Shown here: positions 1-56,068 of the stretch, in pieces
How positions within the stretch are numbered: the stretch's first letter is position 1
Layout of the letters: each line of letters starts with the position of its first letter
Assembly: GCA_042584585.1 (NCBI GenBank)
Contig: JBHOSQ010000003.1
Span: forward strand, 39,644 to 103,643
Origin: an archaeon
GTDB taxonomy: Archaea > B1Sed10-29 > WALL01
DNA length: 64,000 bases
Direction of reading: 5' to 3'
Position numbers and translations under genes: made by a program
The notes under the pieces: model-generated
Databases searched by the model: none
Seen by the model: the letters and a program-made list of their open reading frames with translations, nothing else
Told to the model about the DNA's origin: nothing

Positions 1-575
1 ATAGTGCCGTCACAAATGTAGCTCACCGTCGCCACGAACCGCGGCTCGTGCAAACCCTCCTCCAAAACAACAACTGCCGCCACATTAGACCCCTTGACTA
101 AGCCGACGAAAAGCTGGAGGAACTTGAACACACTCGACGGCTCGGCGTAAAGGAGCATGTCGGAAAGCGAGTCAAGCACTATGCGGGACCCAGTCTCAAG
201 GCCGGAAATCTCTTTTTTCAGGAGCCGAGTCAACTCGTTCAGCTCGGTGAGCGACGCGAGCCTCACCACGTTCTTCGGCGGCTCCGGCACATCGCCCGAA
301 ATCCGCCACGAATACCCGTCGATGAAGTAAATGTTGCTCAAGTCCTCAATGCCAACTGCCTTGAGGCCGTTGATTATCTGCTCCACCGGCTCCGAAGTAG
401 CGACGTAAATGCACCGCTGGCCTTTGTCCATTCCTTCCTTCGCGAACTGCCGGCAAAAGCTGGTCTTGCCGGTTCCCGGCGGCGCCTCCAAAAGCACAGT
501 TGCCTTCTGGGGGAACCCTCCGCCGAGCAGCTCATCAAGTCCCGGCACTCCAGTCAGTATTTTTGCTTCCGGCAA
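1..575 (-). CDS. KaiC/RecA-superfamily single-domain ATPase (paralog 1); 3' end runs off the window
   Basis: Absent from the ORF track because there is no stop in the window. Minus-strand translation from TTG at 575 gives (M)PEAKILTGVPGLDELLGGGFPQKATVLLEAPPGTGKTSFCRQF...SRIVLDSLSDML...HEPRFVATVSYICDGTI. Walker A is GTGKT and Walker B is hhhhD. A GGGAGGG Shine-Dalgarno-like motif lies about 8 nt upstream of the TTG. Confidence 0.7.
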   Translation of the reverse strand, partial: MPEAKILTGVPGLDELLGGGFPQKATVLLEAPPGTGKTSFCRQFAKEGMDKGQRCIYVATSEPVEQIINGLKAVGIEDLSNIYFIDGYSWRISGDVPEPPKNVVRLASLTELNELTRLLKKEISGLETGSRIVLDSLSDMLLYAEPSSVFKFLQLFVGLVKGSNVAAVVVLEEGLHEPRFVATVSYICDGT

Positions 576-633
576 GCGGTGTCCCTCCCAAGTAGATTAT
601 CCATCATATGACTAACGCACAAGGGGTTATTAT

Positions 634-1392
634 TTATTTGGCAAAGACGACTGCCCTGAACTGGCAAAAGTCGTGGCCTAGGCCCCAGCAGTTTTCTTCC
701 TTAACCTCAATGTTCTCCAACTCGTAAAACACCACGTACGCGCCACGCAGCAATCCGCGTACAAAATGGCAGTAGGTCGCGTTGATGGCTGGCATGCCAG
801 CCGCGAACGCGCTCTCCTCAAGCGTAAGGACCTGCGCGGGATAAGTGCTCTTCTCGACTTTTTCTTCCTTGAAGGACGCGACACCAACCCCCGCGTCGGC
901 CATGAACGAAACCAGTGCCGTGTTGAGATCGTTCACGTCCTTTGGGGTGGAAGCCTTTGCGATTCTTCTGCCAGCATTCTCTCCTGCCTGCACCGCGTTG
1001 CGCTCCAGCTGGAACTGCTGTGCCACTCCGTAAGGCGCGTAAGTCACCTCGTGCAGCAAGTCAATGCTGACCCCTTTGAAGCTTGGGCGCACGCCCTCGG
1101 GCGTGAGGTATTTGAACGGCATCTCGTGGCCCGATGACAGGACCACCTGCTCGTCAATGGCATACCCCGCGGCCTTCACTCCGGACAGTATCTCCAGTAT
1201 CTTGACGCTCGACGCCAAAAGCGCGGGCTGCAGCTTGTCAAGCTTCTGGCCCGGCGAAAACGCCCTCATCTCCCCAGTCGAAAACAAGTGAATCACCACG
1301 TCCCCAAGCCTAGCCTCCAGCAGGTCAAGCTTGCCGACCTTCTTCAGGAGCGGGACCTTGGACAGCTTTTTCAGGTCCAGCTTTACCCCCAA
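634..1392 (-). CDS. V4R-domain (4-vinyl-reductase-like, predicted small-molecule-binding) protein
   Basis: 252-aa ORF. The C-terminus CHFVRGLLRGAYVVFYELENIEVKEENCWGLGHDFCQFRAV matches the remembered V4R pattern C-h-f-x-G-x-l-x-G ... E-x-x-C-x-x-x-G-x-x-x-C-x-F. It sits between KaiC-like genes on the same strand. Confidence 0.55.
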   Translation of the reverse strand: MGVKLDLKKLSKVPLLKKVGKLDLLEARLGDVVIHLFSTGEMRAFSPGQKLDKLQPALLASSVKILEILSGVKAAGYAIDEQVVLSSGHEMPFKYLTPEGVRPSFKGVSIDLLHEVTYAPYGVAQQFQLERNAVQAGENAGRRIAKASTPKDVNDLNTALVSFMADAGVGVASFKEEKVEKSTYPAQVLTLEESAFAAGMPAINATYCHFVRGLLRGAYVVFYELENIEVKEENCWGLGHDFCQFRAVVFAK

Positions 1393-1418
1393 GTCATACT
1401 GGTAAGAGGTAGTATCAA

Positions 1419-2099
1419 TCAGATAATCTCCTCCCGGTAGACCACGATGCCCGACTTGGTTATTTTGAATGGGTACATTGCGTTTGAGTGCTGTACTCCA
1501 CGCATCTTGACTATTTCCAGCGCGCGGCGGCGCTCGTTCTTGATTGGGATGTTGTACAGCGAAATGACCCCGTCCACGATGAACTCTTCAAGAGTGTACT
1601 CCGCGCTCTCTCGCACCGCATAAGGCGCTTCCGCGGTGAACAGCACAGTGCAGTCAAGACCCTCCAGAAACTGGAGGAGCCCCATGATGTTTCGCCTGAA
1701 GTCGAACGGGTCCTGCGTGTTCATCTTGAGGAGTGTGAGTGTGTCAATCACAACGCGCTTCGTGTTGTGCCTTGTGATGTAGGCCTGGAGCACGTCGCTC
1801 AGCCGCTCCCAGTTGAAGCAGTCGACGGACACCAGCACAATGTTGCCGTTGTCGATTTGTCCCTTGAGGTCCCAGTCAAGGCCGGTCGAAAGGTTTTCCA
1901 CGAGCTTGTCCGGCTTTTCCTCGAGCATGACCATCAAGCCCTTCTCCCCCAAAAGCGCGCCGCGATAGAGGAACTCCATCGAAAAAGTTGTCTTGCCGGT
2001 CCCCGGGCCGCCAATCACCATTATGTGCCGCTTCTTGAGCAATCCGCCTCCAAGCATCTCGTCAAGGCCTTCGATTCCAGTGGGGACTCTGTCAACCAT
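1419..2099 (-). CDS. KaiC/RecA-superfamily single-domain ATPase (paralog 2)
   Basis: MVDRVPTGIEGLDEMLGGGLLKKRHIMVIGGPGTGKTTFSMEFLYRGA. Canonical Walker A, LEE after strand 2, Walker B RVVIDTLT, C-terminal IVKMRG motif. Confidence 0.85.
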   Translation of the reverse strand: MVDRVPTGIEGLDEMLGGGLLKKRHIMVIGGPGTGKTTFSMEFLYRGALLGEKGLMVMLEEKPDKLVENLSTGLDWDLKGQIDNGNIVLVSVDCFNWERLSDVLQAYITRHNTKRVVIDTLTLLKMNTQDPFDFRRNIMGLLQFLEGLDCTVLFTAEAPYAVRESAEYTLEEFIVDGVISLYNIPIKNERRRALEIVKMRGVQHSNAMYPFKITKSGIVVYREEII

Positions 2100-2160
2100 T
2101 TAAGCACCTAGTTGGGATAACTCGCAATACCTATAAAAGCGTTTAGCATGCGCAAGAGCC

Positions 2161-2796
2161 TTATTTCGTGCGCAGCCTGAAGCCTTTTGGGCCCAATTCA
2201 TAGAAAAAGTCCTTGGCCGGGACCTTGGTGTCGCGCATCTTTACTATGCGCAACCCTTTCTCCGAATCAAGGTTTACCACGCTGTCGCAAAGCGACCGGA
2301 AAGTGTTTTCCGCGTCCGAGGGATAAGTCCCAAGGTCAAGGGTGAACATGATGACTGACGACTTGGCCTTCACGATTGCGATTACCTGCTGCAGGAAGCG
2401 CTGGATTTCGTCGTCCGAGCTGTACAGCAGCAAAGGGGTCAGCGAGTCGAACAGCAGTATTGACCCCGGCTCAAGGGCGTCCTCGATGAGGAAAGTGATT
2501 TTGCTGAGGTTGGCAAGGGAGTCCACTGCCGCGGGCGCGCCGCTCAGCCACGAATAGCAGTCAATGAAAAACGCCTCGAACCCCAGCTTGAAGCTCGTCA
2601 TTTCCGCGCCGATTTCTTCCTGGGTGTTGTTGGTCAGCACAACGATTTTCTTGCCTTTTTCAGTGGTGTTCATCAGGGAAAGCGAGAAAATGGTTTTGCC
2701 GGCTCCGGGCGTGCCCTGCACGAGCACAGCCGACGCATTGGGCAGCCCAGGGACTATCTCGTTGAATTCCTTGATTCCGGTTTTGACGTGCGTCAT
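2161..2796 (-). CDS. KaiC/RecA-superfamily single-domain ATPase (paralog 3)
   Basis: TGIKEFNEIVPGLPNASAVLVQGTPGAGKTIFSLSL. Walker B is ILLFDSLT; C-terminal motif is RIVKMRD. Confidence 0.8.
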   Translation of the reverse strand: MTHVKTGIKEFNEIVPGLPNASAVLVQGTPGAGKTIFSLSLMNTTEKGKKIVVLTNNTQEEIGAEMTSFKLGFEAFFIDCYSWLSGAPAAVDSLANLSKITFLIEDALEPGSILLFDSLTPLLLYSSDDEIQRFLQQVIAIVKAKSSVIMFTLDLGTYPSDAENTFRSLCDSVVNLDSEKGLRIVKMRDTKVPAKDFFYELGPKGFRLRTK

Positions 2797-2823
2797 GTGC
2801 CATCACTTGTAGGAAGAGCATGC

Positions 2824-2839
2824 TTATATATTATATATT
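2824..2839. promoter_or_regulatory. AT-rich bidirectional TATA region in a 56-bp divergent intergenic spacer
   Basis: ttatatattatatatt is the only AT-rich block between divergent starts 2796 (-) and 2853 (+). It lies about 23-28 nt from each start, which fits leaderless archaeal transcripts. Confidence 0.4.
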
Positions 2840-2852
2840 CTTTTATTGAGTC

Positions 2853-5800
2853 ATGCGAGGGCAAGGTGCCTCAGAGTTCCTTTTGCTGCTGTCATTTATA
2901 TTGCTTTTGATACTGCCAGTGGGGTATTACATATTCACCAACACAACCGAGTCGTCCCGTGTCCTCGAGGCAGACCTCGCGGTGAGCGCGCTCACGAAGA
3001 CGGCGAATTACGTTTATTACCAGTCGCCCGGCGCAAAGCAGGTCGTGACAGTGTTCCTGCCCGGTGGAATCGAATGGGCTGATAGCTACATCGGCCACCC
3101 CACGGAAAGCGGCGGCGAGGAAATCAACCTAGCGCTCTACACCCAGACGGGTGGGACGACTGATATAATTGGCCTCACAGAGGGAGAAGTCCGCGGCACG
3201 TGGCCCGACAGCAACGGGAACTATAGGTTCATGGTGAGGAAAACTGCGGATGGCTATGTCATAATCGGGCCGTACGAACAGACCTTCCTCCTCGAGCCAC
3301 AATCCTACACCACGACAATGGTGGCTGGGGCATTGGACTCGTTCACAATTACGGCAACTGAGCTCGAAGGCTCGGATCGGACGCTTACGCTTACGCCGGG
3401 CGGCGAAATCGCGACGTGGCTGTCCCTTGGGACGAGCTCGCTCGACCTAGCGGCGGACGCCCAGAACACGACGCTTGTCAACATAACCGTCCCCGCCGCC
3501 ACGCCCGCTGGCGTCTACACAGGCACAGTCGACGCGACTGACGGCGAGGTGACTGACGTTGTCTACATCACGGTGATTTCCCTTGGGCCAGTCACGCCGC
3601 CCGGTGGCATCGAGGGCGGGCTGCTCGTCAACATAACCCACCCAACAAACACCACTTACACAGAATGGCCGATTGACCTCAACTACACCGTGAACGCGAC
3701 CCCCGCCTGGTGCGGCTACACGCTGGACGGAAGCGTGCTCACTACGATAGACGGAAACGTCACCATGCTGCCGACGAACGGCTCGCACTACGTTACAGTT
3801 TTGTGTGTCAGTGCGGACGGAAAATCGGGCACGGACGACGAATGGTTCTCCACGGACTTCGGGAACGAGCCGTGGTGCTTCAACCTGACCATGCTCTGGG
3901 CGTACAACAGCACTTACGACGATGTCATGCCCGAGATCTTCACGAGCAACGATGTATACGCCGATGAACACGGCATCTTAGAAGACGCGCTCACCTTCAT
4001 TGACGCCACTTTCGAGTTCGCCATCAACCCAAACGTCGATGACGTAGTGATTCACAACATGTCGCAGGGGTGGGAGCACTACGAATCAGACGCCCAGATA
4101 GACCCCGTCCTGCAGTGGCAGCTCAACAATGGGTGGGGCGGCACGGTATGCCAGCTGCCGGCATACTCAAACCCGGCCCAAGAAGCGCTTGACGTCTGCA
4201 CGCTCTCGGAAGAGGAGGTGCCCGCAACGCCTGGCGAAGTGCTAATCCTCTCCACAAGGGTGTACTACCTGTCACAGTCGGCGTCGGCACACGAGGCGCA
4301 TATCGACTGGACTTACCTCACGGTTTGTTACGGCGAGGCGATAACTGAGCTCAACATAATCTCTCCGACGAACACGAATTACTCAGAGGAAAACATTTGG
4401 TTCAACATCAGCTCGAACTCAATGATGGACGAGGCATGGTTCTCGCTTGACGGTGCTGCAAACCACTCGCTGGGTGACAGCGGGTTCACCGCGTCACACC
4501 TGACTGGCGTTGGGTTTGGCGAGCACAACGTCACGTTCTACGCCAACGACTCCAATGGCAACATTATGTCCAACTGGACCACGTTTAACAGGACCGGGGG
4601 CGCCGTCGGGGGCAGCGCGCCGACCCACTTGACTCCGATACTGAACGCGACTTCCGCGAACAACCTGACGGCGGACAACCTCACCTGCTGGAACCAGAGT
4701 ACTTCTGACCCGGACGGCGACGCGGTGAAGAACATCTTCAACTGGAAGAAGGACGGGGAGTGGGCCATGGGATTGAACATGCCGTTCGAGGGTGGAAGTA
4801 ATAGCACCTGGATGGAGGACTATTCCGGGAACGACAACCACGGCACCAACACTGGCTCGACGTGGGACAACACAACTGGCTACGACGGCTGGGGGTCCTA
4901 CCACTTCGATGGCGCGACTGACTACATCACTGTCGCAGACTCTGCGTCGATAAATTTCACTGGGCCGTTCACGGTCTCGCTGTGGGCCAAGGCGGAAGTT
5001 GCCCCGGACCAGTGGGACACATTGTTGGTGAAGGCCACGAGTGACTGGTGGGACGACGGCTACGCCCTGTTCTATGACAGTGCCTCTACTGTGAAGTTCT
5101 ACCTCAATGGGTTCGACGAGGACTTCGCCACCGCCTCGCTGACGCCGACGCAGTGGAACCACATTGTTGGCGTGTACAACGGAAGCGCGCTGAGGATATT
5201 CGTTAACGGCACGGAAGGCACTCCTGACACCAGCATCACCGGGACCGGGCCCACCAACGCTGCGCCAATCAGGATTGGGTCGCACGACGGGGGCTACGAG
5301 CACCAGGGATGGATTGACGACATCTTGGTGTTCAACCATTCGCTGTCGCCGGAACAGGTTACGGCGCTCTACAACAACCAGACCAATTTGATTGTGTCGC
5401 AGGAGACGGATGAGGGCGACGTCTGGCAGTGTGAGATTACTCCGAACGACGGTGGCCAGGACGGCTTGACCAAGACATCGAATACCTTGACTATCGCCGA
5501 CAGCGTCGCGCCAGTAATAACGATAGTATCGCCCACGAACACTACATACAACGAGACCTGGGTCTGGATGAACATCACGCTCGACGAGAGCGGAAGCTGG
5601 GCGGGCTATTCTCTGGACGGCGCGGCCAATGTGACAATGACCGGAAGCGGCACGAGCTGGTACTACAACGCGAGCGGCCTCGCGGAGACCGGGCATACCG
5701 TGGTGTTCTACGCCAATGACTCGTGGGGCAACATGGGTGTAAGCGCGATGCGGTGGTTCACAATCGACACTGCCGCGGTAAGCGCGTGCCCGTACACGAT

Positions 5801-6494
5801 TGACGCGTGGGAGCTTGACACTGACAAGCCGCAGCCCATCGAGTTCACCAGTGGGTTGAACACGACGGCGAACACGTTTGGAATTGGTGGCGCGAGCGAC
5901 GGATGGGACTGGGCGTGGGACGTTTACGACAGTGGCAGCACATGTGTGTACTTCAACGGAAACGCGTACGTGAGCGCGGCGAGCCCGACCACAGGTGCGG
6001 TGAACACCGGGGTTAATGCTGATGACTTGATACGCATAGACATCGGCGACTCGCACGAGGTAGGCGATAGCGTGTGCAACCTTGACGGCCACGGCAGCGG
6101 CGCTTACGCGGTCAAGCTGGACGTGACTGGTGATATGTGGAGTGAGATAGCCAGTGGCGGCACCGCGACTGTGTACTTCGACTGGTCGTTCACTGACTAC
6201 GCGCTTGACAGTGGGGACGACGCTTGGGTGAAGGCGCGGTTCGGGAACTCTACCACGATGACTTACCTAGGCACGCAGGTCGGCGGCGGCAACGACGACG
6301 CGGACGCGGACATAATGTTCCAGAGCAACCCGGCGGATACAAGCGGCTCCGAGGCGATTGACGTGACGAGCCTGATTACTGAAGCTGGAAGCCACTACTT
6401 GGAGCTTGGGGCGCGGGTCTTTGACTGGGACAACAACGAGGGCGGGAACTTCGAGTTCGATAACGTGGACTTGAACGTCAGCTGCGCACCGTGA
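2853..6494 (+). CDS. Giant pilin-like surface protein / putative adhesin with class III signal peptide, LamG (concanavalin-A-like lectin) domain and three repeated beta-rich modules
   Basis: N-terminus is MRGQGASEFLLLLSFILLLILPV. The LamG-like segment is YHFDGATDYITVADSASINFTGPFTVSLWAKA...WNHIVGVYNGSALRIFVNGTE...IRIGS...GWIDDILVFNHSLSPEQV (about nt 4770-5387). Repeats of the type SPTNT(T/N)Y...LDGAAN...V(T/V)FYANDS.GN occur at about 3621-3851, 4347-4589 and 5511-5765. I count roughly 40 N-x-S/T sequons by eye. Confidence 0.85.
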   Translation: MRGQGASEFLLLLSFILLLILPVGYYIFTNTTESSRVLEADLAVSALTKTANYVYYQSPGAKQVVTVFLPGGIEWADSYIGHPTESGGEEINLALYTQTGGTTDIIGLTEGEVRGTWPDSNGNYRFMVRKTADGYVIIGPYEQTFLLEPQSYTTTMVAGALDSFTITATELEGSDRTLTLTPGGEIATWLSLGTSSLDLAADAQNTTLVNITVPAATPAGVYTGTVDATDGEVTDVVYITVISLGPVTPPGGIEGGLLVNITHPTNTTYTEWPIDLNYTVNATPAWCGYTLDGSVLTTIDGNVTMLPTNGSHYVTVLCVSADGKSGTDDEWFSTDFGNEPWCFNLTMLWAYNSTYDDVMPEIFTSNDVYADEHGILEDALTFIDATFEFAINPNVDDVVIHNMSQGWEHYESDAQIDPVLQWQLNNGWGGTVCQLPAYSNPAQEALDVCTLSEEEVPATPGEVLILSTRVYYLSQSASAHEAHIDWTYLTVCYGEAITELNIISPTNTNYSEENIWFNISSNSMMDEAWFSLDGAANHSLGDSGFTASHLTGVGFGEHNVTFYANDSNGNIMSNWTTFNRTGGAVGGSAPTHLTPILNATSANNLTADNLTCWNQSTSDPDGDAVKNIFNWKKDGEWAMGLNMPFEGGSNSTWMEDYSGNDNHGTNTGSTWDNTTGYDGWGSYHFDGATDYITVADSASINFTGPFTVSLWAKAEVAPDQWDTLLVKATSDWWDDGYALFYDSASTVKFYLNGFDEDFATASLTPTQWNHIVGVYNGSALRIFVNGTEGTPDTSITGTGPTNAAPIRIGSHDGGYEHQGWIDDILVFNHSLSPEQVTALYNNQTNLIVSQETDEGDVWQCEITPNDGGQDGLTKTSNTLTIADSVAPVITIVSPTNTTYNETWVWMNITLDESGSWAGYSLDGAANVTMTGSGTSWYYNASGLAETGHTVVFYANDSWGNMGVSAMRWFTIDTAAVSACPYTIDAWELDTDKPQPIEFTSGLNTTANTFGIGGASDGWDWAWDVYDSGSTCVYFNGNAYVSAASPTTGAVNTGVNADDLIRIDIGDSHEVGDSVCNLDGHGSGAYAVKLDVTGDMWSEIASGGTATVYFDWSFTDYALDSGDDAWVKARFGNSTTMTYLGTQVGGGNDDADADIMFQSNPADTSGSEAIDVTSLITEAGSHYLELGARVFDWDNNEGGNFEFDNVDLNVSCAP

Positions 6495-7072
6495 TTGAAA
6501 TGGATGAGCTGGAGAATAGCATAGCTGCACTCGAGAAGGCGAGGGGTCAGCTGCATGTAAAGAAGCCGGGGCACGGCAAGACAATTGCAGTGATAGCAAT
6601 AGCTATAATCGCGGTGGCGGCGCTGCTCGCGCTCGCGGCGCTTGTTGTGGTACAGGCTGGGCTGCCGGAAATTGGGCTGCCTAGTATACCAGAAATCGAG
6701 CTGCCGGACATGGACTCGCCGGTGATTGAAGAGCCGGAAGCCCCAACCGCCCTTCCGGTTGATGCCTTCCCCCTCACTGGGTCTTACGTATGCACAGTAA
6801 CTGGCAATGATTACCATGTGTACGAGGAGTCGTACTTTTACCTTGAGGGGGAGAACCTTGCGATTGTTGGCGACGGGCAGAAGTTGATTGTAACGCCTGG
6901 ACGCAGGCAAGTAAGGGAAGCCGCGGCCCAGGACTTCTTCGTGTTCGCGCCAGGGGTGGTGTGCATTGAGGACGGTGAGCCAGAGCGGATAATGGAGGAG
7001 GCGGGAGAAACCGGCATCATTGCTTTCGGCGGCACGGACTACGTGGTCGAGCCGGGGAAGGTCGACGGATGA
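6491..7072 (+). CDS. Hypothetical bitopic membrane protein of the pilus operon
   Basis: 193 aa with a single TM segment (TIAVIAIAIIAVAALLALAALVVVQAG) after a short N-terminal helix. GTGA overlap with the upstream gene and ATGA overlap with the downstream gene. No family recognised. Confidence 0.6.
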   Translation: MIEMDELENSIAALEKARGQLHVKKPGHGKTIAVIAIAIIAVAALLALAALVVVQAGLPEIGLPSIPEIELPDMDSPVIEEPEAPTALPVDAFPLTGSYVCTVTGNDYHVYEESYFYLEGENLAIVGDGQKLIVTPGRRQVREAAAQDFFVFAPGVVCIEDGEPERIMEEAGETGIIAFGGTDYVVEPGKVDG

Positions 7073-7479
7073 GGGGGCAAGTCACTTTCGAGTTCCTTGG
7101 GACGGTAGTGGTGGCCATGCTGATTTACGCAATATTCAGCACGTACATATTCATACAGTTTGAGTCCCTGCTGCCGTGGCAAAACCAAAACTATGACGCG
7201 AGATTCTACGCCGAGCAAATAGCAGAAGCAATTGACTACGCCCACTTCGGCGGCGATGGCTACCACGACACTTTCGTGCTGCCGGAGCAAATACGCAGCC
7301 GGAACTACACTGTTTTCTACAGCAGCGGCATCATCGAGGTCGACATAGTGGACTTGGGGGATGTGGACAGCTACGGCATCGCTCATGTGGTCGCGCCGCA
7401 GGTCGGGATGTTCAGCGTGGGCAATGGCACTAACCACGTGGTGAACTCGAACGGCACTGTGGGGGTGTGGGTCCAGTGA
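7069..7479 (+). CDS. Pilin-like protein (class III signal peptide), minor pilin candidate
   Basis: MRGQVTFEFLGTVVVAMLIYAIF: a short basic leader, then G, then a hydrophobic helix. 4-nt ATGA overlap with the upstream stop. Confidence 0.7.
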   Translation: MRGQVTFEFLGTVVVAMLIYAIFSTYIFIQFESLLPWQNQNYDARFYAEQIAEAIDYAHFGGDGYHDTFVLPEQIRSRNYTVFYSSGIIEVDIVDLGDVDSYGIAHVVAPQVGMFSVGNGTNHVVNSNGTVGVWVQ

Positions 7480-9357: not shown

Positions 9358-9572
9358 TGGAAAAGAGGATTGAAACACAGGCGGACGACTTGCTGATGAT
9401 GCTCAGGAGGGAAAAGCGCATGAGTGTGCCGCAGCTCCAGAAGGCGCTCGGCGTTGAGTCGATGCTTCTGGAAAAATGGATTACAATATTTGAGGCGAAC
9501 GGGACGGTTGACCTGATTTATCCTGCCAACCCGATTGACCCGCCGTACGTGGTGATTAAGCATGACAAGTAA
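9357..9572 (+). CDS. Small hypothetical protein, possible winged-helix fold
   Basis: I chose ATG at 9357 (TAATG overlap with the upstream stop), giving MEKRIETQADDLLMMLRREKRMSVPQLQKALGVESMLLEKWITIFEANGTVDLIY. The helix-turn-helix-like pattern is a guess from sequence only. Confidence 0.45.
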   Translation: MEKRIETQADDLLMMLRREKRMSVPQLQKALGVESMLLEKWITIFEANGTVDLIYPANPIDPPYVVIKHDK

Positions 9573-11004
9573 GGACCCTAAAGAGTTGGACCCGCTGAAG
9601 GAGTTTGACGAGACAATCGGCGCGATGGACAAGCGGATTGCCGGGATGAAGGATCGCGGCTACTTGCCTAAGTACCTCGAAAAGCTCAAGGACCGGAGAG
9701 GTGAGCTTGTTTACGCTCTGAACCAGGGGGACAAGGAAAAGGCGGCCGAGATAATCGACTTGGCGATTGAGTTCGGCAAGGAAATCAACAAGATGAAGGA
9801 CGTGAAGCCCGCGCCACTGGGGTTCGTCAAGTCATTGATACCGAAGCGCAGGAAAAAGATTGAAGCCGCGCCCAAGAAGGAAGTGGTGGAAGCGAAGAAA
9901 GTGGTTGCCGAGAACACGAAGGTGTACGACAGCGAGCTGAACATGCTCACGGTCGAGCTGGCGAAGAGAGAGGTCGAGCTCGAGGGCCTGAAGGGCGCCT
10001 ACGCCAATTTATCCGCCGAGATGGGTGAGATGAGGCGGAAGATGGAGGAGAAGGAGGCAAAGGACGTCAAGGCGCTGTCGGCGCAGATTGTCGAGCTGAA
10101 GAAGGGCTTGGACGGCATGCACGGCACCATGGCCACGGAATTCAAGAACGGGAAGGCGGCTTACACTGATTTCGGGTCGGAATTGTTGAGCCTCGCGATA
10201 AAGGTGTCGGAGCTCGAGGACTTGATTGAGTCCGGTGACCTGGTGACTGAGGTCGACGTGATTGAACTGAACCACGCAGTGGGCTCGCTCGAGAAAAAGC
10301 TGGTCTTGGTCGAGGCCAGGCAAAAGACGGAGCGGCTTGCGTTGCTGGACAAGGTCCAAAACGACCAAAAGAAAATGATGAAGCAGCTGGCGGGCAAGGC
10401 GGACACACAGAAGATGGTGTCCGCGATGAAGCAGTACGTCAGCGAAATCAAGCACGACGTCGCGGAACAGGAGACGCGCCTGGCCGCAGAGATGCAGGTG
10501 GAGCTCAAGAGCTCTTACTACACGCTGGACCAGAAGCTCAAGAAGCTTGAGAAGGCATTGGGCAAGGCACGGACCAAAAAAGACTTGGTGTCTGTCCAGG
10601 CAAAGGTAGAGGAATTGGGCAAGCACGTCGAGAAGGTGCGGGGGGAGGAGATGCGGCTGAAGCGCGAGATGGACCAGCAGCACTTGAGCGACGACGCCAT
10701 CCTGCAGCGGATTAACAGCGTGTCGGAGCGCGTGAGGAAGAGCGGAGAAATGGACTCGCTCGCGATTGCGGACGTGTACAAGACGATTGACGCGCTTGAG
10801 GCGCAGGTGAGCATGAGTGACGCCGAAAGCAAGAAGGCCAAGGCAATGGCGCGGTCGATTAGCGCCATCAAGAAAGACTTGTCCGTGATAGAGGGCGAGG
10901 CGGAAGATGTTTCCCCGAAGGGCAAGCGCAAACCGTCTTCGGCGAAGCCGAAGACAAGGGCTAAGGCTGTCAAGAAAAAAGCCAAGGCGAAGAAAAGGCT
11001 GTGA
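9562..11004 (+). CDS. 480-aa K/E-rich coiled-coil protein with lysine-rich C-terminal tail, no TM segment
   Basis: Heptad-like K/E/L/A composition throughout. The tail is KGKRKPSSAKPKTRAKAVKKKAKAKKRL. Overlaps the upstream gene by 11 nt. No family recognised. Confidence 0.7.
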   Translation: MTSKDPKELDPLKEFDETIGAMDKRIAGMKDRGYLPKYLEKLKDRRGELVYALNQGDKEKAAEIIDLAIEFGKEINKMKDVKPAPLGFVKSLIPKRRKKIEAAPKKEVVEAKKVVAENTKVYDSELNMLTVELAKREVELEGLKGAYANLSAEMGEMRRKMEEKEAKDVKALSAQIVELKKGLDGMHGTMATEFKNGKAAYTDFGSELLSLAIKVSELEDLIESGDLVTEVDVIELNHAVGSLEKKLVLVEARQKTERLALLDKVQNDQKKMMKQLAGKADTQKMVSAMKQYVSEIKHDVAEQETRLAAEMQVELKSSYYTLDQKLKKLEKALGKARTKKDLVSVQAKVEELGKHVEKVRGEEMRLKREMDQQHLSDDAILQRINSVSERVRKSGEMDSLAIADVYKTIDALEAQVSMSDAESKKAKAMARSISAIKKDLSVIEGEAEDVSPKGKRKPSSAKPKTRAKAVKKKAKAKKRL

Positions 11005-11087
11005 AGAAAGCAAAGAAAAAGGCGAGCAAACGGTCTTCGACAAAGCCTAAGCCAAAGAAAAAGTTGTTCGGACTCCTCGGTGGTTAA

Positions 11088-11357
11088 ATGGAAGAAGTTG
11101 CGTACGGTGACAGTGAAAGGGTCAAGGAAGTGAAGGCCTGGCTAAAGAAAGGCATGAAGATAGCCGAGGTGCGCGAGAAACTGGAAAAGTTTGGGTACAG
11201 CAGCTATCACGTCGCGTTTTTGCTTGAGGAGGCGACCGGCAAGTCGTTCGTGCCGGCGAAGCCCATTGTGTTGATTGACACCACGAAGGTCAAGGCTGTG
11301 GTGATAATTGCCGTGGTCGCGGTAATCGCGTTCGTGTTGGTAACTTGGGTCCTGTAG
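11088..11357 (+). CDS. Small C-terminally membrane-anchored hypothetical protein
   Basis: 89 aa: a helical N-terminal domain followed by the TM segment AVVIIAVVAVIAFVLVTWVL. Lies immediately upstream of the secretion ATPase. Confidence 0.5.
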   Translation: MEEVAYGDSERVKEVKAWLKKGMKIAEVREKLEKFGYSSYHVAFLLEEATGKSFVPAKPIVLIDTTKVKAVVIIAVVAVIAFVLVTWVL

Positions 11358-11368
11358 GTGAATGAAAA

Positions 11369-13057
11369 ATGGTGACTGTTGACGAGCTGAAAAAGGCTTT
11401 GGAGGAGCTTGAGGAGAGCAAGAAAAACCTCAAGGGGAAGAAAAAGCGGGTGGAGAAGAAAATAGGTCCACTCAAGGAAGTCAAGCTCTCCAAGAAAGTC
11501 AAGGCCATGAAGGCCCAGGACTTGCCTGGCAGCGAGGTCTACGTCGCGACGCACTACGAGGGCAAGCTCATGAACGAGTATAACCTCACGACCGAGCGCA
11601 TCCCAGTCAACATAAAGATTGTGAGGCCGCCGAGCGGCTACAACCCGGTGTATGATGTTTACCTCCCTGACATCGGGGAGGGAACGTGGATTATGCTCAA
11701 GAAAATCCGCAACGAGATAACATCCGAGGTCGGCATCCGTGGCAGGGAAATCCTGGACGTGAAGCTGCAGAAGACCATTGAGGCAAAGTTCCGGGAGAGC
11801 GCGACCAAGAAGCTGATTAAGTACTTGCCCAAGACCGACGAGAAGTCATTGGTCGTGCTCACGGAGTACTTGATTAACGACATGCTTGGCCTTGGAAAGC
11901 TTGAGCTGTTGCTTGACGACGACGGGCTCGAAGAAATCGTGATTAACTCGTCGAAGGAGCCGGTGTGGGTCTACCACAAGATGCACGGCTGGCTCAAGAC
12001 CAACCTGATGGTCGAGGACGACGCGCAGATTGCGGACTACGCCAACGCCATTGGAAGGCGGGCGGAGAGGCAGATAAACACATTAAACCCATTGATGGAC
12101 GCGCACCTCAGCACAGGGGAGCGTGTCAACGCGACGCTGCTGCCGATTTCGACTGACGGCAACACCATAACAATCCGGAAGTTTTCGCACGACCCGTGGA
12201 CCATCACAGGGTTCATAGAGAACAAGACGGTTGACTCCAAGATTGCCGCGCTGCTGTGGACCGCGATGCAGTACGAGCTGAACATGATTGTCGCGGGTGG
12301 CACGGCAAGCGGAAAAACGTCGATGCTTAACTCGATGACCCCGTTCCTTCCGCCGAACCACCGGATCATATCGATTGAGGACACGAGGGAATTGAGGCTG
12401 CCGAGCTACCTGCACTGGGTGCCGATGGTGACGCGCCAGCCCAACCCCGAGGGCAAGGGCGGGGTCAGCATGCTTGACCTCATGGTGAACTCCCTGCGTA
12501 TGAGGCCAGACCGCGTGATAGTGGGTGAAATCAGGCGGCACGACGAGGCCGAAGTGTTGTTCGAGGCCATGCACACGGGGCACAGTGTTTACTCGACGCT
12601 TCACGCCAACACAGCCGACGAGGTTCGGCGGCGGCTGGTGACGCCTCCGCTGAGCATTCCCGAGACGCTGATGGAGTCTTTGCACTTGGTTAGTGTGCAG
12701 TTCAGGCACAGGAAGCTTGGGATTAGGCGGGTGCTTGAGATTGCGGAAGTGCTGCCGAGCGCTGAGGGTACGGTGTCGTTCAGGACGATTTACAAGTGGC
12801 GCGCGGGGCAGGACACGTTCGGGAAGCTCAAGGACTCTGTGCGCGTGATTCCAGAGATACAGCTGTTCACTGGCATGAGCCTCAGGGAGATAAACGAGGA
12901 GCTGAAGCAAAAGGAAAGCGTGCTGGACTGGCTTGTGAAGAACAAGGTCAACAGCACCGACCAGATTGGCAAGATAATAAGCGAGTATTACATCAATGAG
13001 GACGTAGTTGTCGGGGCAATGAAGAAGAACAAGGACCCGCAAGAGCTGATGAGATAA
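11369..13057 (+). CDS. Type IV pilus / archaellum-family assembly ATPase (FlaI/PilB/GspE/VirB11 superfamily)
   Basis: Walker A is AGGTASGKTSMLNSM. Other motifs are IISIEDTRELRL, RPDRVIVGEIRRHDEAEVLFEAMHTGHSVYSTLHANTADE and NTITIRKF. There is a K-rich coiled N-terminal extension. Confidence 0.9.
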   Translation: MVTVDELKKALEELEESKKNLKGKKKRVEKKIGPLKEVKLSKKVKAMKAQDLPGSEVYVATHYEGKLMNEYNLTTERIPVNIKIVRPPSGYNPVYDVYLPDIGEGTWIMLKKIRNEITSEVGIRGREILDVKLQKTIEAKFRESATKKLIKYLPKTDEKSLVVLTEYLINDMLGLGKLELLLDDDGLEEIVINSSKEPVWVYHKMHGWLKTNLMVEDDAQIADYANAIGRRAERQINTLNPLMDAHLSTGERVNATLLPISTDGNTITIRKFSHDPWTITGFIENKTVDSKIAALLWTAMQYELNMIVAGGTASGKTSMLNSMTPFLPPNHRIISIEDTRELRLPSYLHWVPMVTRQPNPEGKGGVSMLDLMVNSLRMRPDRVIVGEIRRHDEAEVLFEAMHTGHSVYSTLHANTADEVRRRLVTPPLSIPETLMESLHLVSVQFRHRKLGIRRVLEIAEVLPSAEGTVSFRTIYKWRAGQDTFGKLKDSVRVIPEIQLFTGMSLREINEELKQKESVLDWLVKNKVNSTDQIGKIISEYYINEDVVVGAMKKNKDPQELMR

Positions 13058-13941
13058 TGGATGACTACCTTCCGCCACTGCCCATGCCCCGGGACCGGGC
13101 GCTGAAGCTAGCAGGTTCGCTGGCGTTCATTGGGTACCAGGTGACGAGGATTCAGCCCGCCATAATCTCTGACCTTGCCGAGGCGGAAATGAAGTGGGAC
13201 CCTTCAGAGTACGCGACACTGGCGGTTATCTCGGCGCTGTACCAGGCAGTCCTTATCATGGGGCTGATGGCGGTGCTGGGCTACGTCATGCAGGACTGGG
13301 ACGTTGCGCTTTATGGCGTGGGAGTGGGCCTCGTGTTCGGGGGATTCATGTTCATGCGCGCCTTGTTTTACCCGTCCTACACGGTAAGGCGAAGGGTCCG
13401 CGAAATAGAAAAGAACTTCTTGTATGCCTTGAGGCACATGCTCATCCAGGTGATGGGCGGGACGCCCGTGTTCAACTCCATGGTGAGCATTTCCGAGGTT
13501 GGGTACGGGGAAATATCCGACGAGTTCCTGAGGGTGGTCCGCGAGATTAACTCGGGGCATTCGATGACTGACGCGCTTGAGGCCATGGCGCTGCGGAACC
13601 CATCCATTTACCTGCGGCGGATGATTTGGCAGATTGTGAACGCGCTGCGCACGGGGAGCGACATGGGCGAGACGCTGCGCGTGGTCGTGGAACAGTTCAC
13701 TGCCGAGCAGCGCGTGCTGCTCCAGAAGTTCTCGAAAGAGCTTGGGCCGTGGGCAATGATGTACATGATGGTGACAGTGATCTTCCCGACGCTTGGGATA
13801 ACCCTGTTCCTCATCCTTTCGTCGCTGTCGTCCATGCAGCTCAACGAGACCATGCTGTTGTCGTTCGTGATTATTTCGATTGTCATCCAGTACTTTTTCA
13901 TCCAGTTCCTGAAGACAAAGAGGCCGGTGATGAGGTGGTAG
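13057..13941 (+). CDS. Pilus platform membrane protein with one T2SF (GspF/TadB/TadC/FlaJ-type) domain
   Basis: FLYALRHMLIQVMGGTPVFNSMVSISEV.YGEISDEFLRVVREINSGHSMTDALEAMALRNPSIYLRRMIWQIVNALRTGSDMGETL, flanked by TM helices. TAATG overlap with the ATPase gene. Confidence 0.8.
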   Translation: MDDYLPPLPMPRDRALKLAGSLAFIGYQVTRIQPAIISDLAEAEMKWDPSEYATLAVISALYQAVLIMGLMAVLGYVMQDWDVALYGVGVGLVFGGFMFMRALFYPSYTVRRRVREIEKNFLYALRHMLIQVMGGTPVFNSMVSISEVGYGEISDEFLRVVREINSGHSMTDALEAMALRNPSIYLRRMIWQIVNALRTGSDMGETLRVVVEQFTAEQRVLLQKFSKELGPWAMMYMMVTVIFPTLGITLFLILSSLSSMQLNETMLLSFVIISIVIQYFFIQFLKTKRPVMRW

Positions 13942-14002
13942 CATAGAAACTTTCCAGGAAAGGGTCGCGAACCTCCTCGAGCGGAACCTCCCCAAGTTCC
14001 TC

Positions 14003-14971
14003 GTGGACGCAACGAACCAGGCATTGGTTTACGCAGGCATGGAAATGCGCCCGGGCCGCTGGCTCATGTTCTCGATAGCAAACTCTTTCCTGCTTGGCTT
14101 CGCCGTGGCAGTCGGCATACAGGCGTTCCTCGGGGAGGAGCTGCCAATGCTGTTCATAGGCGGGACAACGCTCTTCATTGGGGGGGCGTTCATCGGCGTG
14201 TTCCACAATATCCTGGTCTACTACGGGGGCAGGAGGGCGCTGCAGATAGAGCTGATGCTTCCGGACGCGCTGCAGCTGATTGCCGCGAACATTCGCGCAG
14301 ACATCCCAATCCACAAGTCCCTGTTGCTGGCTGCCAGGCCGGAATTCGGGCTGTTGGCCCAGGAAATAGAGAAAGTGGGGAACAGCATCCTAGGGGGAAT
14401 GCCGACGAGCAAGGCATTCACCGCGTTCGGGCTGCGCGTCAAGTCCCCAATGATTAGGAGGATTACGACGCTCATGGAGGAGGGCCTGCGGTCCGGGCAC
14501 GATTTGGCGGGCATGCTTGACCAGGTCGCGTATGACCTTCGGGTGTTCAAGATACTGGACGAGGAGGCCAAGGCCAACATCGGGTCCTACGTGATTTTCA
14601 TTGTTATGGCCGTGCTGGTTATTGCCCCGGTGCTGTACTCCATCTCAATTTCGTTCATTAGCCTGAACGAGCAGGTTAAAGAGACGCTGAACATTGGGGA
14701 ATTGGTGAGCCAGGTGTCGGTTGGGAGCAGCTCGACGCTCGTGGGCCTCGTGTCGGGGGACAGCGGGGTGAGTTCGGATACCCTGGCGTTTTTCGCGGCG
14801 CTTAACCTGGCGGCGAGCGCCGGCATAGCCGCCATACTGGTTTCCGTGCTTGAGACGGGCGAAGCGCTGCAGAAAATGCCGTATATCCCCACGTTTATAG
14901 TCGTGGCGGAGGCGATTTTCTTTGTCACACTCACGGTTTTGAGGATTGTATTGGGCGGAATCTTCGCTTAA
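14003..14971 (+). CDS. Second pilus platform membrane protein with one T2SF domain (start uncertain)
   Basis: LPDALQLIAANIRADIPIHKSLLLAARPEFGLLAQEIEKVGNSILGGMPTSKAFTAFGLRVKSPMIRRITTLMEEGLRSGHDLAGMLDQVAYDL. Its frame is open from 13934, upstream of the GTG at 14003. Confidence 0.75.
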   Translation: MDATNQALVYAGMEMRPGRWLMFSIANSFLLGFAVAVGIQAFLGEELPMLFIGGTTLFIGGAFIGVFHNILVYYGGRRALQIELMLPDALQLIAANIRADIPIHKSLLLAARPEFGLLAQEIEKVGNSILGGMPTSKAFTAFGLRVKSPMIRRITTLMEEGLRSGHDLAGMLDQVAYDLRVFKILDEEAKANIGSYVIFIVMAVLVIAPVLYSISISFISLNEQVKETLNIGELVSQVSVGSSSTLVGLVSGDSGVSSDTLAFFAALNLAASAGIAAILVSVLETGEALQKMPYIPTFIVVAEAIFFVTLTVLRIVLGGIFA

Positions 14972-14983
14972 AAAACCACAATC

Positions 14984-14991
14984 TTTATAAA
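14984..14991 (+). promoter_or_regulatory. TATA box (tttataaa) for the small pilin gene; GGAGG SD at 15025-15029
   Basis: tttataaa lies in a 65-bp intergenic spacer. GGAGG lies 7 nt upstream of ATG 15037. Confidence 0.45.
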
Positions 14992-15036
14992 TCGCTGTTC
15001 AGTAACAGGGGTAATTATCCTTTTGGAGGATTCAAC

Positions 15037-15489
15037 ATGAAAAAACGAGGACAAGGAGCAATGGAATACCTGATGACTTATGGGTGGGCAATACTTGTAG
15101 TCATCATTGTGGGAATAGTGCTTTGGCAGTCAGGTGTGTTTGGCACCGGTGCAGGCGGCGTAAGCGGCTTCAACCGTGTAAGGATTGAGGACCAAGCGTG
15201 GTCCAACACCACTGGATGGACAGCTAGCTACGAGAACGCAGCCGGCGGAACAATGAAGAAAGTCAACATAACATTGACTGGGGACCTCCCGCTCAATGGC
15301 AGTGTAGACGGCTACACAAACAACACTGGCACTAACTGGGCGCCTGGCAAGGAATACTTAATCTCCGCACCCAACGAATTTTGCCAAGAAGGCGAAGGAT
15401 ACGCCGTTGATGTAACGATTGAGTACGCATCCGAGGCTGGCATCACCCACACTGAAACAGGCACAGTCCGTGGCAAGTGCGAAGCATAA
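15037..15489 (+). CDS. Small pilin with class III signal peptide (candidate major pilin)
   Basis: MKKRGQGAMEYLMTYGWAILVVIIVGIVLW; 150 aa. It has its own promoter and SD, and is followed by a hairpin plus T-run. Confidence 0.8.
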   Translation: MKKRGQGAMEYLMTYGWAILVVIIVGIVLWQSGVFGTGAGGVSGFNRVRIEDQAWSNTTGWTASYENAAGGTMKKVNITLTGDLPLNGSVDGYTNNTGTNWAPGKEYLISAPNEFCQEGEGYAVDVTIEYASEAGITHTETGTVRGKCEA

Positions 15490-15517
15490 GGGCCTAAAAA
15501 GCCCTTAACCCCTTTTT
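15488..15517 (+). terminator. Hairpin (aagggc-N7-gccctt) followed by a T5 run
   Basis: AAGGGC (15488-15493) pairs with GCCCTT (15501-15506). ccccttttt follows directly after the pilin stop codon. Confidence 0.4.
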
Positions 15518-15549
15518 CTTATAGTTTTAAATAGCGTTGAGTGTTAACT

Positions 15550-16224
15550 ATGGCTGTGGAAGCAATAAAGACGGGAATTTCCGGGTTTGACGCGGTAACC
15601 GGTGGAGTGCCGAAGGGCCACACCCTGCTTTTGGCGGGCCCGACCGGGTCGTACACAGAGCTTTTTGGCCTGGAATTCCTTTACCGTGGGGCAATCCAGA
15701 AAGAAAACGTGGTTTACATCTCGTTCGAGAAGAAGGAAGAAGACCTGGTCGAGATGACTTCGGTCTTTGACTGGAACCTTTCGAATGTGATTGACGGCAA
15801 AAACTTCATTGTCATGAGCAGCGAGCTGTTCAACTACTCAAAATTCATTTCTTCGCTTGAGGACACGATTTTTTCGTACAAGGCGACGCGCCTCGTGCTG
15901 GACTCCATAAGCTTCCTCGGGGGGTTCTTTGACACCCCGTTCAAGTTCAGGACAAGCCTCGGCGAGCTCCGCACCATGCTGAACCGCCACGACTGCACAA
16001 GCATGCTGGTCTCGGAGTCGCGCGGCAATGAGTTAAGCCCGTACGGGGTCGAGGAATTCATCGCGGACGGCATAATCCAGCTGCACAACATAAAAAAGGG
16101 AAACAACGTGACCCACGCCCTGTCCGTCCCAGAAATGAGTGGAATGGAAATCAGCCCGAGGCTGTACCCGCTCGAGCTAACCAAAAAAGGGATGAAAGTG
16201 CGGGAAATCCCGTTGGTTCTCTAA
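15550..16224 (+). CDS. KaiC/RecA-like protein (paralog 4) with degenerate Walker A (predicted non-catalytic)
   Basis: MAVEAIKTGISGFDAVTGGVPKGHTLLLAGPTGSYTELFGLEFLYRGA. The P-loop reads AGPTGSYT instead of GxxGxGK[TS] (codons at 15637-15660). Walker B-like RLVLDSIS is retained. ttttaaat lies about 25 nt upstream of ATG 15550, suggesting a leaderless transcript. The track start GTG 15541 is in frame. Confidence 0.75.
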   Translation: MAVEAIKTGISGFDAVTGGVPKGHTLLLAGPTGSYTELFGLEFLYRGAIQKENVVYISFEKKEEDLVEMTSVFDWNLSNVIDGKNFIVMSSELFNYSKFISSLEDTIFSYKATRLVLDSISFLGGFFDTPFKFRTSLGELRTMLNRHDCTSMLVSESRGNELSPYGVEEFIADGIIQLHNIKKGNNVTHALSVPEMSGMEISPRLYPLELTKKGMKVREIPLVL

Positions 16225-29757: not shown

Positions 29758-32724
<2,967 letters not shown>

Positions 32725-32728
<4 letters not shown>

Positions 32729-33564: not shown

Positions 33565-33658
33565 GCAATCACCCCGATGTTATATAAAGATTAAAGGAGT
33601 TATAAAAGGTGTTGGGTGTAGTCTTGTTAGGCTCCCCACTCGGTTTGGTGCAACCTAT

Positions 33659-36363: not shown

Positions 36364-36398
36364 ACAGCCCCGCATCTAACTAAAATAGGGTGGTTGGT

Positions 36399-45160: not shown

Positions 45161-45198
45161 GTGAAAAGAATATATATACGTACTTTCACAGCTATTAC

Positions 45199-50931: not shown

Positions 50932-50940
50932 GGTGCTCGT

Positions 50941-51483: not shown

Positions 51484-51489
51484 AAAGAA

Positions 51490-56064: not shown

Positions 56065-56068
56065 AGCA

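Follow-up and report, generated by a model that had tools for sequence, protein, structure and literature searches.

The DNA analysed here is a 64-kb stretch of contig JBHOSQ010000003.1 (positions 39,644 to 103,643), referred to below as the window. Its host is a small DPANN archaeon of the Iainarchaeota/Diapherotrites, and the beginning of the window carries a gene cluster that we read, with moderate confidence in the overall picture, as that of an adhesion-type type IV pilus (T4P) with proposed control by KaiC-like proteins. The archaeal T4P gene set is complete in the window and comprises an ATPase, a split platform, six proteins with class III signals and an A24-family peptidase. Two KaiC-like genes, KaiC_a and KaiC_d, are lineage-fixed accessories that flank the pilus operon. 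A further unit, KaiC_b-V4R-KaiC_c, is evolutionarily separable from KaiC_a and from the pilus; this lineage-restricted KaiC/V4R module, which stays close to the pilus, is the unusual trait of the locus.

The locus was compared with those of relatives, which carry the labels L001 to L095; the closest is L001/L008, with 80% identity of the ATPase. A wider scan covered one genome per GTDB species and gave 599 confirmed stretches. The best 80 loci, 41-53% identical, were inspected, and their hosts were Iainarchaeum and Woese-, Nano-, Micr-, Aenigm-, Parv- and Pacearchaeota.

T4P machinery and pilins

The secretion ATPase matched the Pfam T2SSE family at 120.7 bits against a cutoff of 24.9, with a weak additional match to PilB3_C. 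Among PDB entries it was closest to Archaeoglobus fulgidus GspE (2OAP, 8e-68), followed by FlaI (1e-56) and CpaF (~1e-53). Its scores stayed below the cutoffs of two NCBIfam models, reaching 274 bits for the FlaI/ArlI equivalog NF058587 (cutoff 550) and 129 bits for the BasE model (cutoff 1000). The 7730 homologs that were scored are mostly from DPANN archaea; an NCBI entry labelled 'archaeon' is identical, one at 80% identity is from a 'Candidatus Diapherotrites archaeon', and those at ~55% identity are from Aenigmarchaeota, Micrarchaeota and other DPANN archaea. At its N-terminus the ATPase carries a lineage-specific, K/E-rich extension of ~65 aa (11369-11560), which is absent from the DPANN homologs of ~513 aa. 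The start of this extension (DELKKALEELE) is similar to the N-terminus of p193, a membrane protein of the same operon (DELENSIAALE).

The platform is split into TadC1 and TadC2, which matched T2SSF at 66.7 and 47.3 bits (2.4e-18 and 2.6e-12; cutoff 25.2); TadC2 scored 19.8 bits against the ArlJ model NF004705, whose cutoff is 400. One T2SSE gene and two single-T2SSF genes are what the initial annotation, an earlier reading of this DNA from the sequence alone, had named as the ATPase and platform genes. The Peptidase_A24 gene (49.7 bits, cutoff 26.5) lies 41 kb from the pilus locus, and its product is the predicted processing enzyme needed for the locus pilins. It adjoins Pus10 and SRP54/FtsY genes.

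Class-III-type N-termini, consisting of a short basic start, [KR]G[QF] and a hydrophobic helix of ~20 residues, were found in six proteins, as judged by inspection. The largest is a giant of 1213 aa with a LamG domain at residues 686-836, three [SH]PTNT[TN]Y repeats of the beta-sandwich type and 39 N-glycosylation sequons. Its size changes fast, from 807 to 1469 aa among orthologs, and by analogy it is a probable pilus-tip adhesin. Iainarchaeum GCA_016939415 has a second T4P locus, L055, and the paralogous giant encoded there gave a weak match to the Pfam family Class_IIIsignal. Four smaller proteins of 136, 148, 149 and 338 aa begin with MRGQVTFEFL, KKGQAFTMDL, SRGFYMSIDI and MKKGFVFSLL, and in each of them a hydrophobic helix comes next; the 148-aa protein also has a weak DUF7287 match. 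All four are kept in L001, L003, L005 and L094, and we read them as putative minor pilins. The giant and the four further class III signal proteins had all been seen in the initial annotation, and the Laminin_G_3 match and these N-termini bear that out.

The sixth protein, PilA150, is the candidate major pilin. Its gene has its own TATA-like element and Shine-Dalgarno sequence, in agreement with the earlier description of a separately promoted small pilin, and a stem-loop with a T-run stands directly past its stop codon. Homologs of PilA150 come after TadC2 in many of the 80 inspected DPANN loci. The platform is split across these loci. The order ATPase-TadC1-TadC2 is near-universal in them, and in most cases between one and three PilA150-like pilins come next. 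On gene order, the split platform and this core can be regarded as a DPANN-wide pilus type.

Organization of the locus

Thirteen genes run along the plus strand from 2853 to 14971 with junctions that overlap or span at most 11 nt, save for two gaps of 83 and 61 nt (Table 1). Two more plus-strand genes follow after 14971, with a short A/T-rich gap before each. The open reading frames (ORFs) of the initial annotation were found at its coordinates, and the tightly coupled operon that it described holds at all eight listed stop/start overlaps. Those at 6491, 7069, 8341, 9562 and 13057 are valid with the first start codon; those at 7476, 7910 and 9357 are valid with in-frame internal GTG or ATG starts, which agrees with the lengths of orthologs.

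The minus strand carries, in order, KaiC_a, KaiC_b, the V4R gene and KaiC_c, which is cut at the window start. This gene content and the 56-bp divergent gap were as first described, but the strand may not be a single operon. The gap between KaiC_a and KaiC_b measures 61 bp and has its own TATA-like element, TTTTATAGG; because it splits the two genes, the minus strand may form two transcription units.

A promoter function of the region between KaiC_a and the giant gene was inferred from its sequence. The palindromic element CTTATATATTATATA lies ~27 nt from the KaiC_a ATG and ~14-22 nt from that of the giant, and it is conserved in four relatives, including L001, L005 and L091. Since the element is so near to both start codons, the KaiC_a and giant transcripts are probably both leaderless. 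A sigma-70 promoter scan gave 9 matches against 6.9 expected, which is chance, and the sigma-70 model is not meaningful for an archaeon.

Table 1. Features of the pilus locus, the adjoining KaiC/V4R genes and the prepilin peptidase gene, in window coordinates
Feature	Position	Strand	Evidence and remarks
KaiC_c, KaiC-like/DUF7504 protein, 3′ part beyond window start	3-596	-	KaiC 4.5e-25; DUF7504 1.4e-10
Two-domain V4R protein	634-1419 (canonical start TTG 1392)	-	Pfam V4R 1.2e-10
KaiC_b, canonical single-domain KaiC-like ATPase	1419-2099	-	Pfam KaiC 3.9e-61; NCBIfam KaiC/KaiC_arch_3
KaiC_a, divergent ArlH/FlaH-like protein	2161-2796	-	Pfam KaiC 2.5e-18; DUF7504
Putative divergent promoter region, 56 bp	2797-2852		palindromic A/T element CTTATATATTATATA
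Pilin-like giant, 1213 aa	2853-6494	+	class III signal N-terminus; Laminin_G_3 5.5e-23
p193, bitopic membrane protein, 193 aa	6491-7072	+	transmembrane segment at ~residues 26-64
Four class-III-signal proteins, 136, 148, 149 and 338 aa	7069-9357	+	overlaps of 4-19 nt
wHTH71, winged helix-turn-helix-like protein, 71 aa	9357-9572	+	weak MarR match 0.0074; motif LEKWITIFEANGTVDLIYP
cc480, soluble coiled-coil protein, 480 aa	9562-11004	+	38% charged; no transmembrane segment
ta89, tail-anchored protein, 89 aa	11088-11357	+	C-terminal transmembrane segment, residues 59-89
T4P secretion ATPase, TadA/GspE2/FlaI superfamily, 562 aa	11369-13057	+	Pfam T2SSE 7.3e-35
TadC1 and TadC2, split membrane platform, 294 and 322 aa	13057-13941, 14003-14971	+	one T2SSF each
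PilA150, PilA-type major pilin candidate, 150 aa	15037-15489	+	N-terminus KRGQGAMEYLMTYGWAILV
KaiC_d, degenerate Walker A	15541-16224	+	Pfam KaiC 5e-43; probable start ATG 15550
A24-family prepilin (class III signal) peptidase	56993-57862	-	Peptidase_A24 5.4e-13

KaiC-like proteins around the pilus operon

The four KaiC-like proteins are all single-domain (211-249 aa) and scored 66.7, 206.8, 88.8 and 147.6 bits against PF06745, so that each of the four ATPases proposed in the initial annotation lies above the gathering score of 26.6. All four genes are within the first 16.2 kb of the window, and the sole further RecA-superfamily gene in its 64 kb is RadA (23778-24725).

KaiC_a, the most divergent of the paralogs, has an intact Walker A motif, while the catalytic EE is replaced by NN, and this NN is conserved in orthologs. 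Its best NCBIfam matches were FlaH/ArlH, at 59.1 bits against 194 for the FlaH subfamily and 47.4 against 215 for ArlH. The sole full-length sequence match in the PDB was Sulfolobus acidocaldarius FlaH (4YDS, 2.9e-7), which was also the top Foldseek match of the AlphaFold2 model (pTM 0.82), with a TM-score of 0.80 and a root-mean-square deviation of 3.0 Å. By sequence and predicted fold KaiC_a is thus closest to FlaH, yet outside the ArlH family.

KaiC_b has complete motifs (Walker A GGPGTGKT, the catalytic EE and Walker B) and is the only one of the four paralogs with all of them. KaiC_c keeps an intact Walker A (PPGTGKT) and one of the two catalytic Glu residues (TSEP); its full-length orthologs have 236-238 aa. 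KaiC_d has lost the Walker A Lys (GPTGSYTE), and its orthologs, at 43-75% identity, keep GP[TV]GSY[TKR], among them those of L001, L003 and L007. The dead P-loop that was first noticed at 15550 is thereby real and conserved.

A neighbor-joining tree of 28 KaiC-like sequences separated a DUF7504/ArlH-like group with KaiC_a and KaiC_c from a classical group with KaiC_b, KaiC_d and KaiC_e, a fifth paralog found in relatives. KaiC_b and KaiC_d can be classed, on sequence, as classical single-domain KaiC-like proteins. The tree did not show KaiC_d as an ortholog of the intact KaiC genes that come after TadC2 in other DPANN archaea, and no orthology is claimed. KaiA and KaiB gave no match at this locus or at the loci of relatives; every KaiC is single-domain, and a circadian-clock reading was rejected on these two grounds.

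Wherever the contig of a relative reaches far enough, KaiC_a and the giant gene are divergently paired, namely in L001/L008, L094 (KaiC_a 70% identical), L091 (68%), L005 (67%), L093 (58%) and L003 (56%). KaiC_d is terminal in L001, L003/L004 and L007. The association of KaiC-like genes with the pilus is non-random, as had been proposed, since KaiC_a and KaiC_d flank the operon in relatives with enough contig. DPANN-wide, a same-strand KaiC gene follows TadC2 within 2.5 kb in 8 of 45 loci, against ~1.2 expected (0.22 KaiC per 10 kb). In L055, the beginning of the gene for a 1228-aa giant with a class III signal (1750-5433) is overlapped by a canonical KaiC gene (1074-1781), and directly 5′ of the ATPase gene stands an ORF (7437-9914) that combines a C2H2 zinc finger with two DUF7504/KaiC-like segments.

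The V4R protein and its module

The V4R-domain gene that had been placed between KaiC genes scored 41.7 bits against PF02830 (cutoff 31), and the V4R fold was also recovered by Foldseek, which confirms the assignment. In the AlphaFold2 model (pLDDT 76.5) the protein consists of a small N-terminal beta/alpha domain of ~90 aa with no assigned family, a disordered linker and a C-terminal V4R domain. The latter matched MopR (5KBI), PoxR (5FRW), MJ1460 (2OSO), H-NOX and Bet3 by structure, and the C-terminus of MsvR in NCBIfam (1.6e-8). In an alignment of 14 V4R proteins C208, E232, C235 and C243 are invariant and follow the pattern C-x23-E-x2-C-x7-C, a spacing that we take to be that of the MopR zinc site. 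Sequence and model together make a small-molecule or redox input through the V4R domain plausible.

The nine codons 5′ of the TTG start (1393-1422, minus strand) encode DTTSYQYD, homologous to MDTACYQY of relatives. Where relatives have their Met, the window has an ATT codon that is preceded by CTG and shares nucleotides with the stop codon of KaiC_b, which suggests either initiation at a non-canonical codon or a start that shifted recently.

Two-domain V4R proteins are a small, though not tiny, family, with ~30 full-length clusters at 50% identity found among 1.84 billion representatives. Of the metagenome contigs scanned with the V4R alignment, two alone matched, both below 2.2 kb and with no usable context, and an exact-sequence look-up of the window's KaiC_b and V4R proteins gave no record. 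In L005, L007, L091, L093, L094 and L095 the V4R gene either overlaps KaiC_b or abuts on it, so that the two are translationally coupled in relatives. Because this holds in all of these relatives, a 1:1 complex of the two proteins is suggested.

The gene order beyond the window start was taken from a relative that is 77-80% identical. In L008 the order is KaiC_a, KaiC_b, V4R, KaiC_c, a HisKA/HATPase_c kinase, a 117-aa receiver (REC) protein and the fifth KaiC (KaiC_e); the histidine kinase (HK), REC protein and fifth KaiC are also found downstream of KaiC_c in L005 and L092. PAS-domain proteins trail the V4R unit in L005 (12026-14958), L092 (3714-5817) and L007 (6611-8434) as well, and in L005 and L092 a ~215-aa protein with a weak HisKA_7TM match is inserted past V4R.

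Does the V4R module act on the pilus?

DPANN archaea are believed to rely on contact with other cells, and their pili are leading candidates for the means of attaching to a host. In the model that we propose for this locus, the A24 peptidase would trim the pilins, and the hexameric ATPase on TadC1/TadC2 would polymerize PilA150, which would be expressed separately and probably at a high level. Priming of the filament would fall to the LamG giant and the four small pilin-like proteins, which would also occupy its tip as adhesin, with wHTH71, cc480 and ta89 as a cytoplasmic, membrane-tethered scaffold at the motor. A single palindromic TATA element would drive both KaiC_a and the pilin operon, and KaiC_a probably binds the ATPase in a manner that depends on nucleotide; KaiC_d, which would not bind ATP in the usual way, is probably a constitutive adaptor or a competitor. 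The KaiC_b-V4R-KaiC_c module may sense a small molecule or the redox state by way of the putative Zn/Cys site in the V4R domain; this domain would be coupled 1:1 to KaiC_b as the sole paralog with intact catalytic motifs, and the module may signal through the HK-REC pair. Its most likely target would be pilus assembly or expression.

The most far-reaching version of this model is that a multi-paralog KaiC cascade (KaiC_b-V4R, the degenerate KaiC_c and KaiC_e, the HK and the CheY-like REC) acts post-translationally on the pilus motor through KaiC_a and KaiC_d docked on the ATPase. We consider this version unlikely as it stands. If true, it would define a KaiC-to-pilus signalling pathway for the first time, and possibly a host-contact or redox attachment switch in DPANN archaea.

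The initial annotation had also asked whether the KaiC-KaiC-V4R-KaiC operon always accompanies the pilus. It does so in part. The KaiC_b-V4R-KaiC_c unit adjoins KaiC_a in four genomes, among them L091 and L094, where the same order holds as far as their contigs reach; elsewhere the unit is displaced, and in one case it stands near pilins only. Several of these observations, together with others, weigh against control of the pilus by the module. In L005 and L093 the KaiC_b-V4R unit lies 4-6 kb away, with unrelated genes on the opposite strand between it and KaiC_a; there KaiC_a is followed by a 110-aa protein, another KaiC and UbiA (other strand), and the V4R unit has its own upstream KaiC. In L007 the unit lies at the opposite end of the pilus locus, 4.3 kb past KaiC_d, and the three metabolic genes between them are also syntenic with the window. 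In L095, a distant relative with a contig of 1.08 Mb, no ATPase or platform gene occurs within 10 kb of the KaiC-KaiC_b-V4R-170 aa unit (4933-6368). No V4R gene was detected in the 80 wider DPANN T4P loci. Unrelated genes (a symporter, an aminotransferase and an aldehyde dehydrogenase) are syntenic at the same divergence, and because such housekeeping genes keep synteny too, persistent proximity is weak functional evidence. Furthermore, KaiC_a falls below the cutoff of every ArlH/FlaH family model, and the tip-adhesin and scaffold roles are drawn from analogy only.

The points on the position and synteny of the module also suit another explanation, in which the pilus, KaiC_a and KaiC_d are real but the V4R module is an independent general signalling unit of the 'KaiC hub' kind that does not control the pilus. 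Its adjacency here would then stem from the local loss of DNA in a lineage whose gene order decays slowly. The TATA-like element of the module agrees with such independence. Against it, the module has stayed no more than 6 kb from the pilus locus in seven of seven informative genomes, after at least three different rearrangements; in L095 it is 2-5 kb from three tandem pilin genes of the Pilin_N type (8538-11317); and every KaiC paralog of the window clusters around the pilus. We regard this explanation as possible, though tentatively and with less confidence than the pilus-control picture. A regulatory link between module and pilus is plausible, with proximity as its basis. If the module proves unrelated to the pilus, the locus would amount to one more DPANN pilus cluster of a common type, though a well-annotated one.

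Comparison with known systems

The closest counterparts are the Tad-like T4P of the Epd/PilB3 type in DPANN archaea and euryarchaea. Shared with them are the TadA/VirB11 ATPase, the T2SSF platform with its TadB/TadC-like split, a PilA-type pilin, fast-evolving class III pilins, an adhesin-like giant, an intracellular coiled-coil protein and KaiC genes in or near the operon. The present locus differs in that an ArlH-like KaiC_a (EE to NN) and a P-loop-dead KaiC_d are fixed, the winged helix-turn-helix (wHTH) and coiled-coil parts are separate genes, a tail-anchored protein is added and a KaiC-V4R-HK-REC module lies nearby.

Earlier work has described T4P islands of DPANN archaea in which the platform is split into TadB/TadC and the pilins are 'dark matter' (Makarova et al., 2019; PMC6393860), the association of KaiC with T4P (Makarova et al., 2016; PMC4858521) and, in the DPANN lineage Nanohaloarchaeota, Tad clusters that contain two kaiC genes (2022; PMC9563170). 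The proposal of archaeal 'KaiC signalling hubs' is that of Makarova, Galperin and Koonin (2017), as cited in PMC5847659 and PMC6393860. The T4P core and its KaiC association are already known, and the locus is not a new kind of system. The suggestion of an undescribed surface-filament system was not supported, as the core occurs in hundreds of DPANN species and KaiC-T4P association was published in 2016 and, for DPANN archaea, in 2022. None of the publications searched combines V4R, KaiC and T4P. KaiC_a, KaiC_d and the KaiC-V4R-HK-REC genes make a compact, conserved candidate set for testing, beyond the archaellum, the idea dating from 2016-2017 that KaiC-like ATPases control archaeal type IV filaments.

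Two readings of the machinery itself were also weighed. A pseudopilus or bindosome-like apparatus that displays the LamG giant, or a DNA-uptake system that imports host DNA, would draw on the carbohydrate-binding type of the LamG domain and on the DNA import proposed for DPANN pili (PMC9563170). The ATPase, however, falls far short of the BasE model, neither class-III-signal substrate-binding proteins nor DNA-translocation genes were seen in the locus, and a major pilin of the PilA type, whose gene has a promoter and a terminator to itself, points to a long filament. We consider this reading very unlikely.

The archaellum shares more individual parts with the locus. ArlH-ArlI-ArlJ likewise combine a single-domain KaiC-like protein, a FlaI-superfamily ATPase and a T2SSF platform, and FlaH is the best structural match of KaiC_a. 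ArlH binds ATP and barely hydrolyses it; KaiC_a resembles it in retaining Walker A without the catalytic Glu pair. A divergent archaellum, in which KaiC_a would take the part of ArlH, the ATPase that of ArlI and the split platform that of ArlJ, could also call on homologs labelled FlaI and FlaH at JGI, and on the coiled-coil and tail-anchored proteins as possible mimics, by analogy, of an ArlX scaffold. This reading was rejected as highly improbable, in line with the initial annotation, because three proteins score under their equivalog cutoffs, the platform is split, KaiC_a is divergent rather than directly 5′ of the ATPase gene, the ATPase is nearer to A. fulgidus GspE than to FlaI, archaellin, ArlF/G, ArlC/D/E and ArlX had no Pfam or NCBIfam match at E ≤ 0.01 among the locus proteins, and a giant LamG pilin with a PilA-type pilin suits adhesion over swimming.

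Other systems are only partly comparable with the T4P cluster described here. The bacterial Tad/Flp pilus shares the two single-T2SSF platform proteins and the CpaF-like ATPase, but secretin RcpA, TadZ/CpaE, TadD/E/F/G and the Flp pilin had no match among the locus proteins, the locus pilins are of the archaeal class III type and KaiC-like accessories are not known as part of Tad. The combination of KaiC, histidine kinase and receiver seen in L008, L005 and L092 recalls the cyanobacterial KaiC-SasA/CikA-RpaA output and the archaeal KaiC hubs; the locus differs in its single-domain KaiCs, several of them motif-inactivated, in the V4R protein coupled to the active-motif paralog, and in having no KaiA or KaiB match and no sign of an oscillator. 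With the phenol sensors MopR/PoxR and the methanogen redox regulator MsvR, the V4R protein shares the V4R fold and the Cys/Glu pattern, but instead of an AAA+ or DNA-binding output it has the ~90-aa N-terminal domain and a coupled KaiC.

Accessory proteins of the operon

The initial annotation had listed a small wHTH protein, a 480-aa coiled-coil protein, a tail-anchored mini-protein and a bitopic membrane protein, and all four were found. It had considered the genes at 6491, 9357, 9562 and 11088 unrecognizable. This still applies to 6491, whose product p193 had no family match in the Pfam scan and has homologs in L001, L091 and L094 only, a distribution limited to close relatives. It no longer applies to 9357 and 9562. 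The tail-anchored protein ta89, encoded at 11088, has orthologs in L001 and L003 and is likewise limited to close relatives.

The wHTH motif EEWAxxLExxGLVxIxYP occurs directly 5′ of the ATPase gene in many of the 80 DPANN loci. In Woese- and Micrarchaeota the wHTH domain is the N-terminus of a coiled-coil protein of ~380-430 aa, with a coiled coil of ~300 aa, and elsewhere in DPANN archaea it is fused to transmembrane segments or to a CBS pair. In the window the wHTH71 and cc480 genes overlap by 11 nt, and cc480 has orthologs in L001, L003 and L094. Because the same domain is fused to a coiled coil 5′ of the ATPase gene elsewhere, wHTH71 and cc480 are best read, at the level of sequence, as the split form of a widespread DPANN wHTH-coiled-coil pilus accessory. 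An intracellular coiled-coil protein was also noted in a haloarchaeal T4P, whose ATPase clade is shared with nanoarchaea (Makarova et al., 2016; PMC4858521). In DPANN pili, the wHTH domain protein encoded directly 5′ of the ATPase, often fused to a coiled coil, appears to be a core accessory that still lacks a name, and it is a widespread component of their loci. Examples of the domain lie at L011:940-2106, L016:8544-9728, L020:8534-9829, L029:8699-9850, L071:4870-6078 and L077:47-1330, and also in L064, L033 and L027.

Other genes in the window

A tRNA scan of the window found none. A near-complete cluster for de novo purine and GMP synthesis occupies 30769-48124; it contains purA, purN, folD, purF, purD, purE, purB, purM, purL, purQ, purC, guaA, the IMP dehydrogenase gene and purH. 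It is followed by an A-type ATP synthase operon (48544-56683). Together, the purine/GMP and ATP synthase genes indicate a metabolic autonomy above the DPANN norm. The IMP dehydrogenase is encoded in two adjoining ORFs, 45151-45690 (N-terminal part and CBS domain) and 45716-46606 (catalytic remainder), which may reflect a true split of the gene, a frameshift or a mistake in the assembly.

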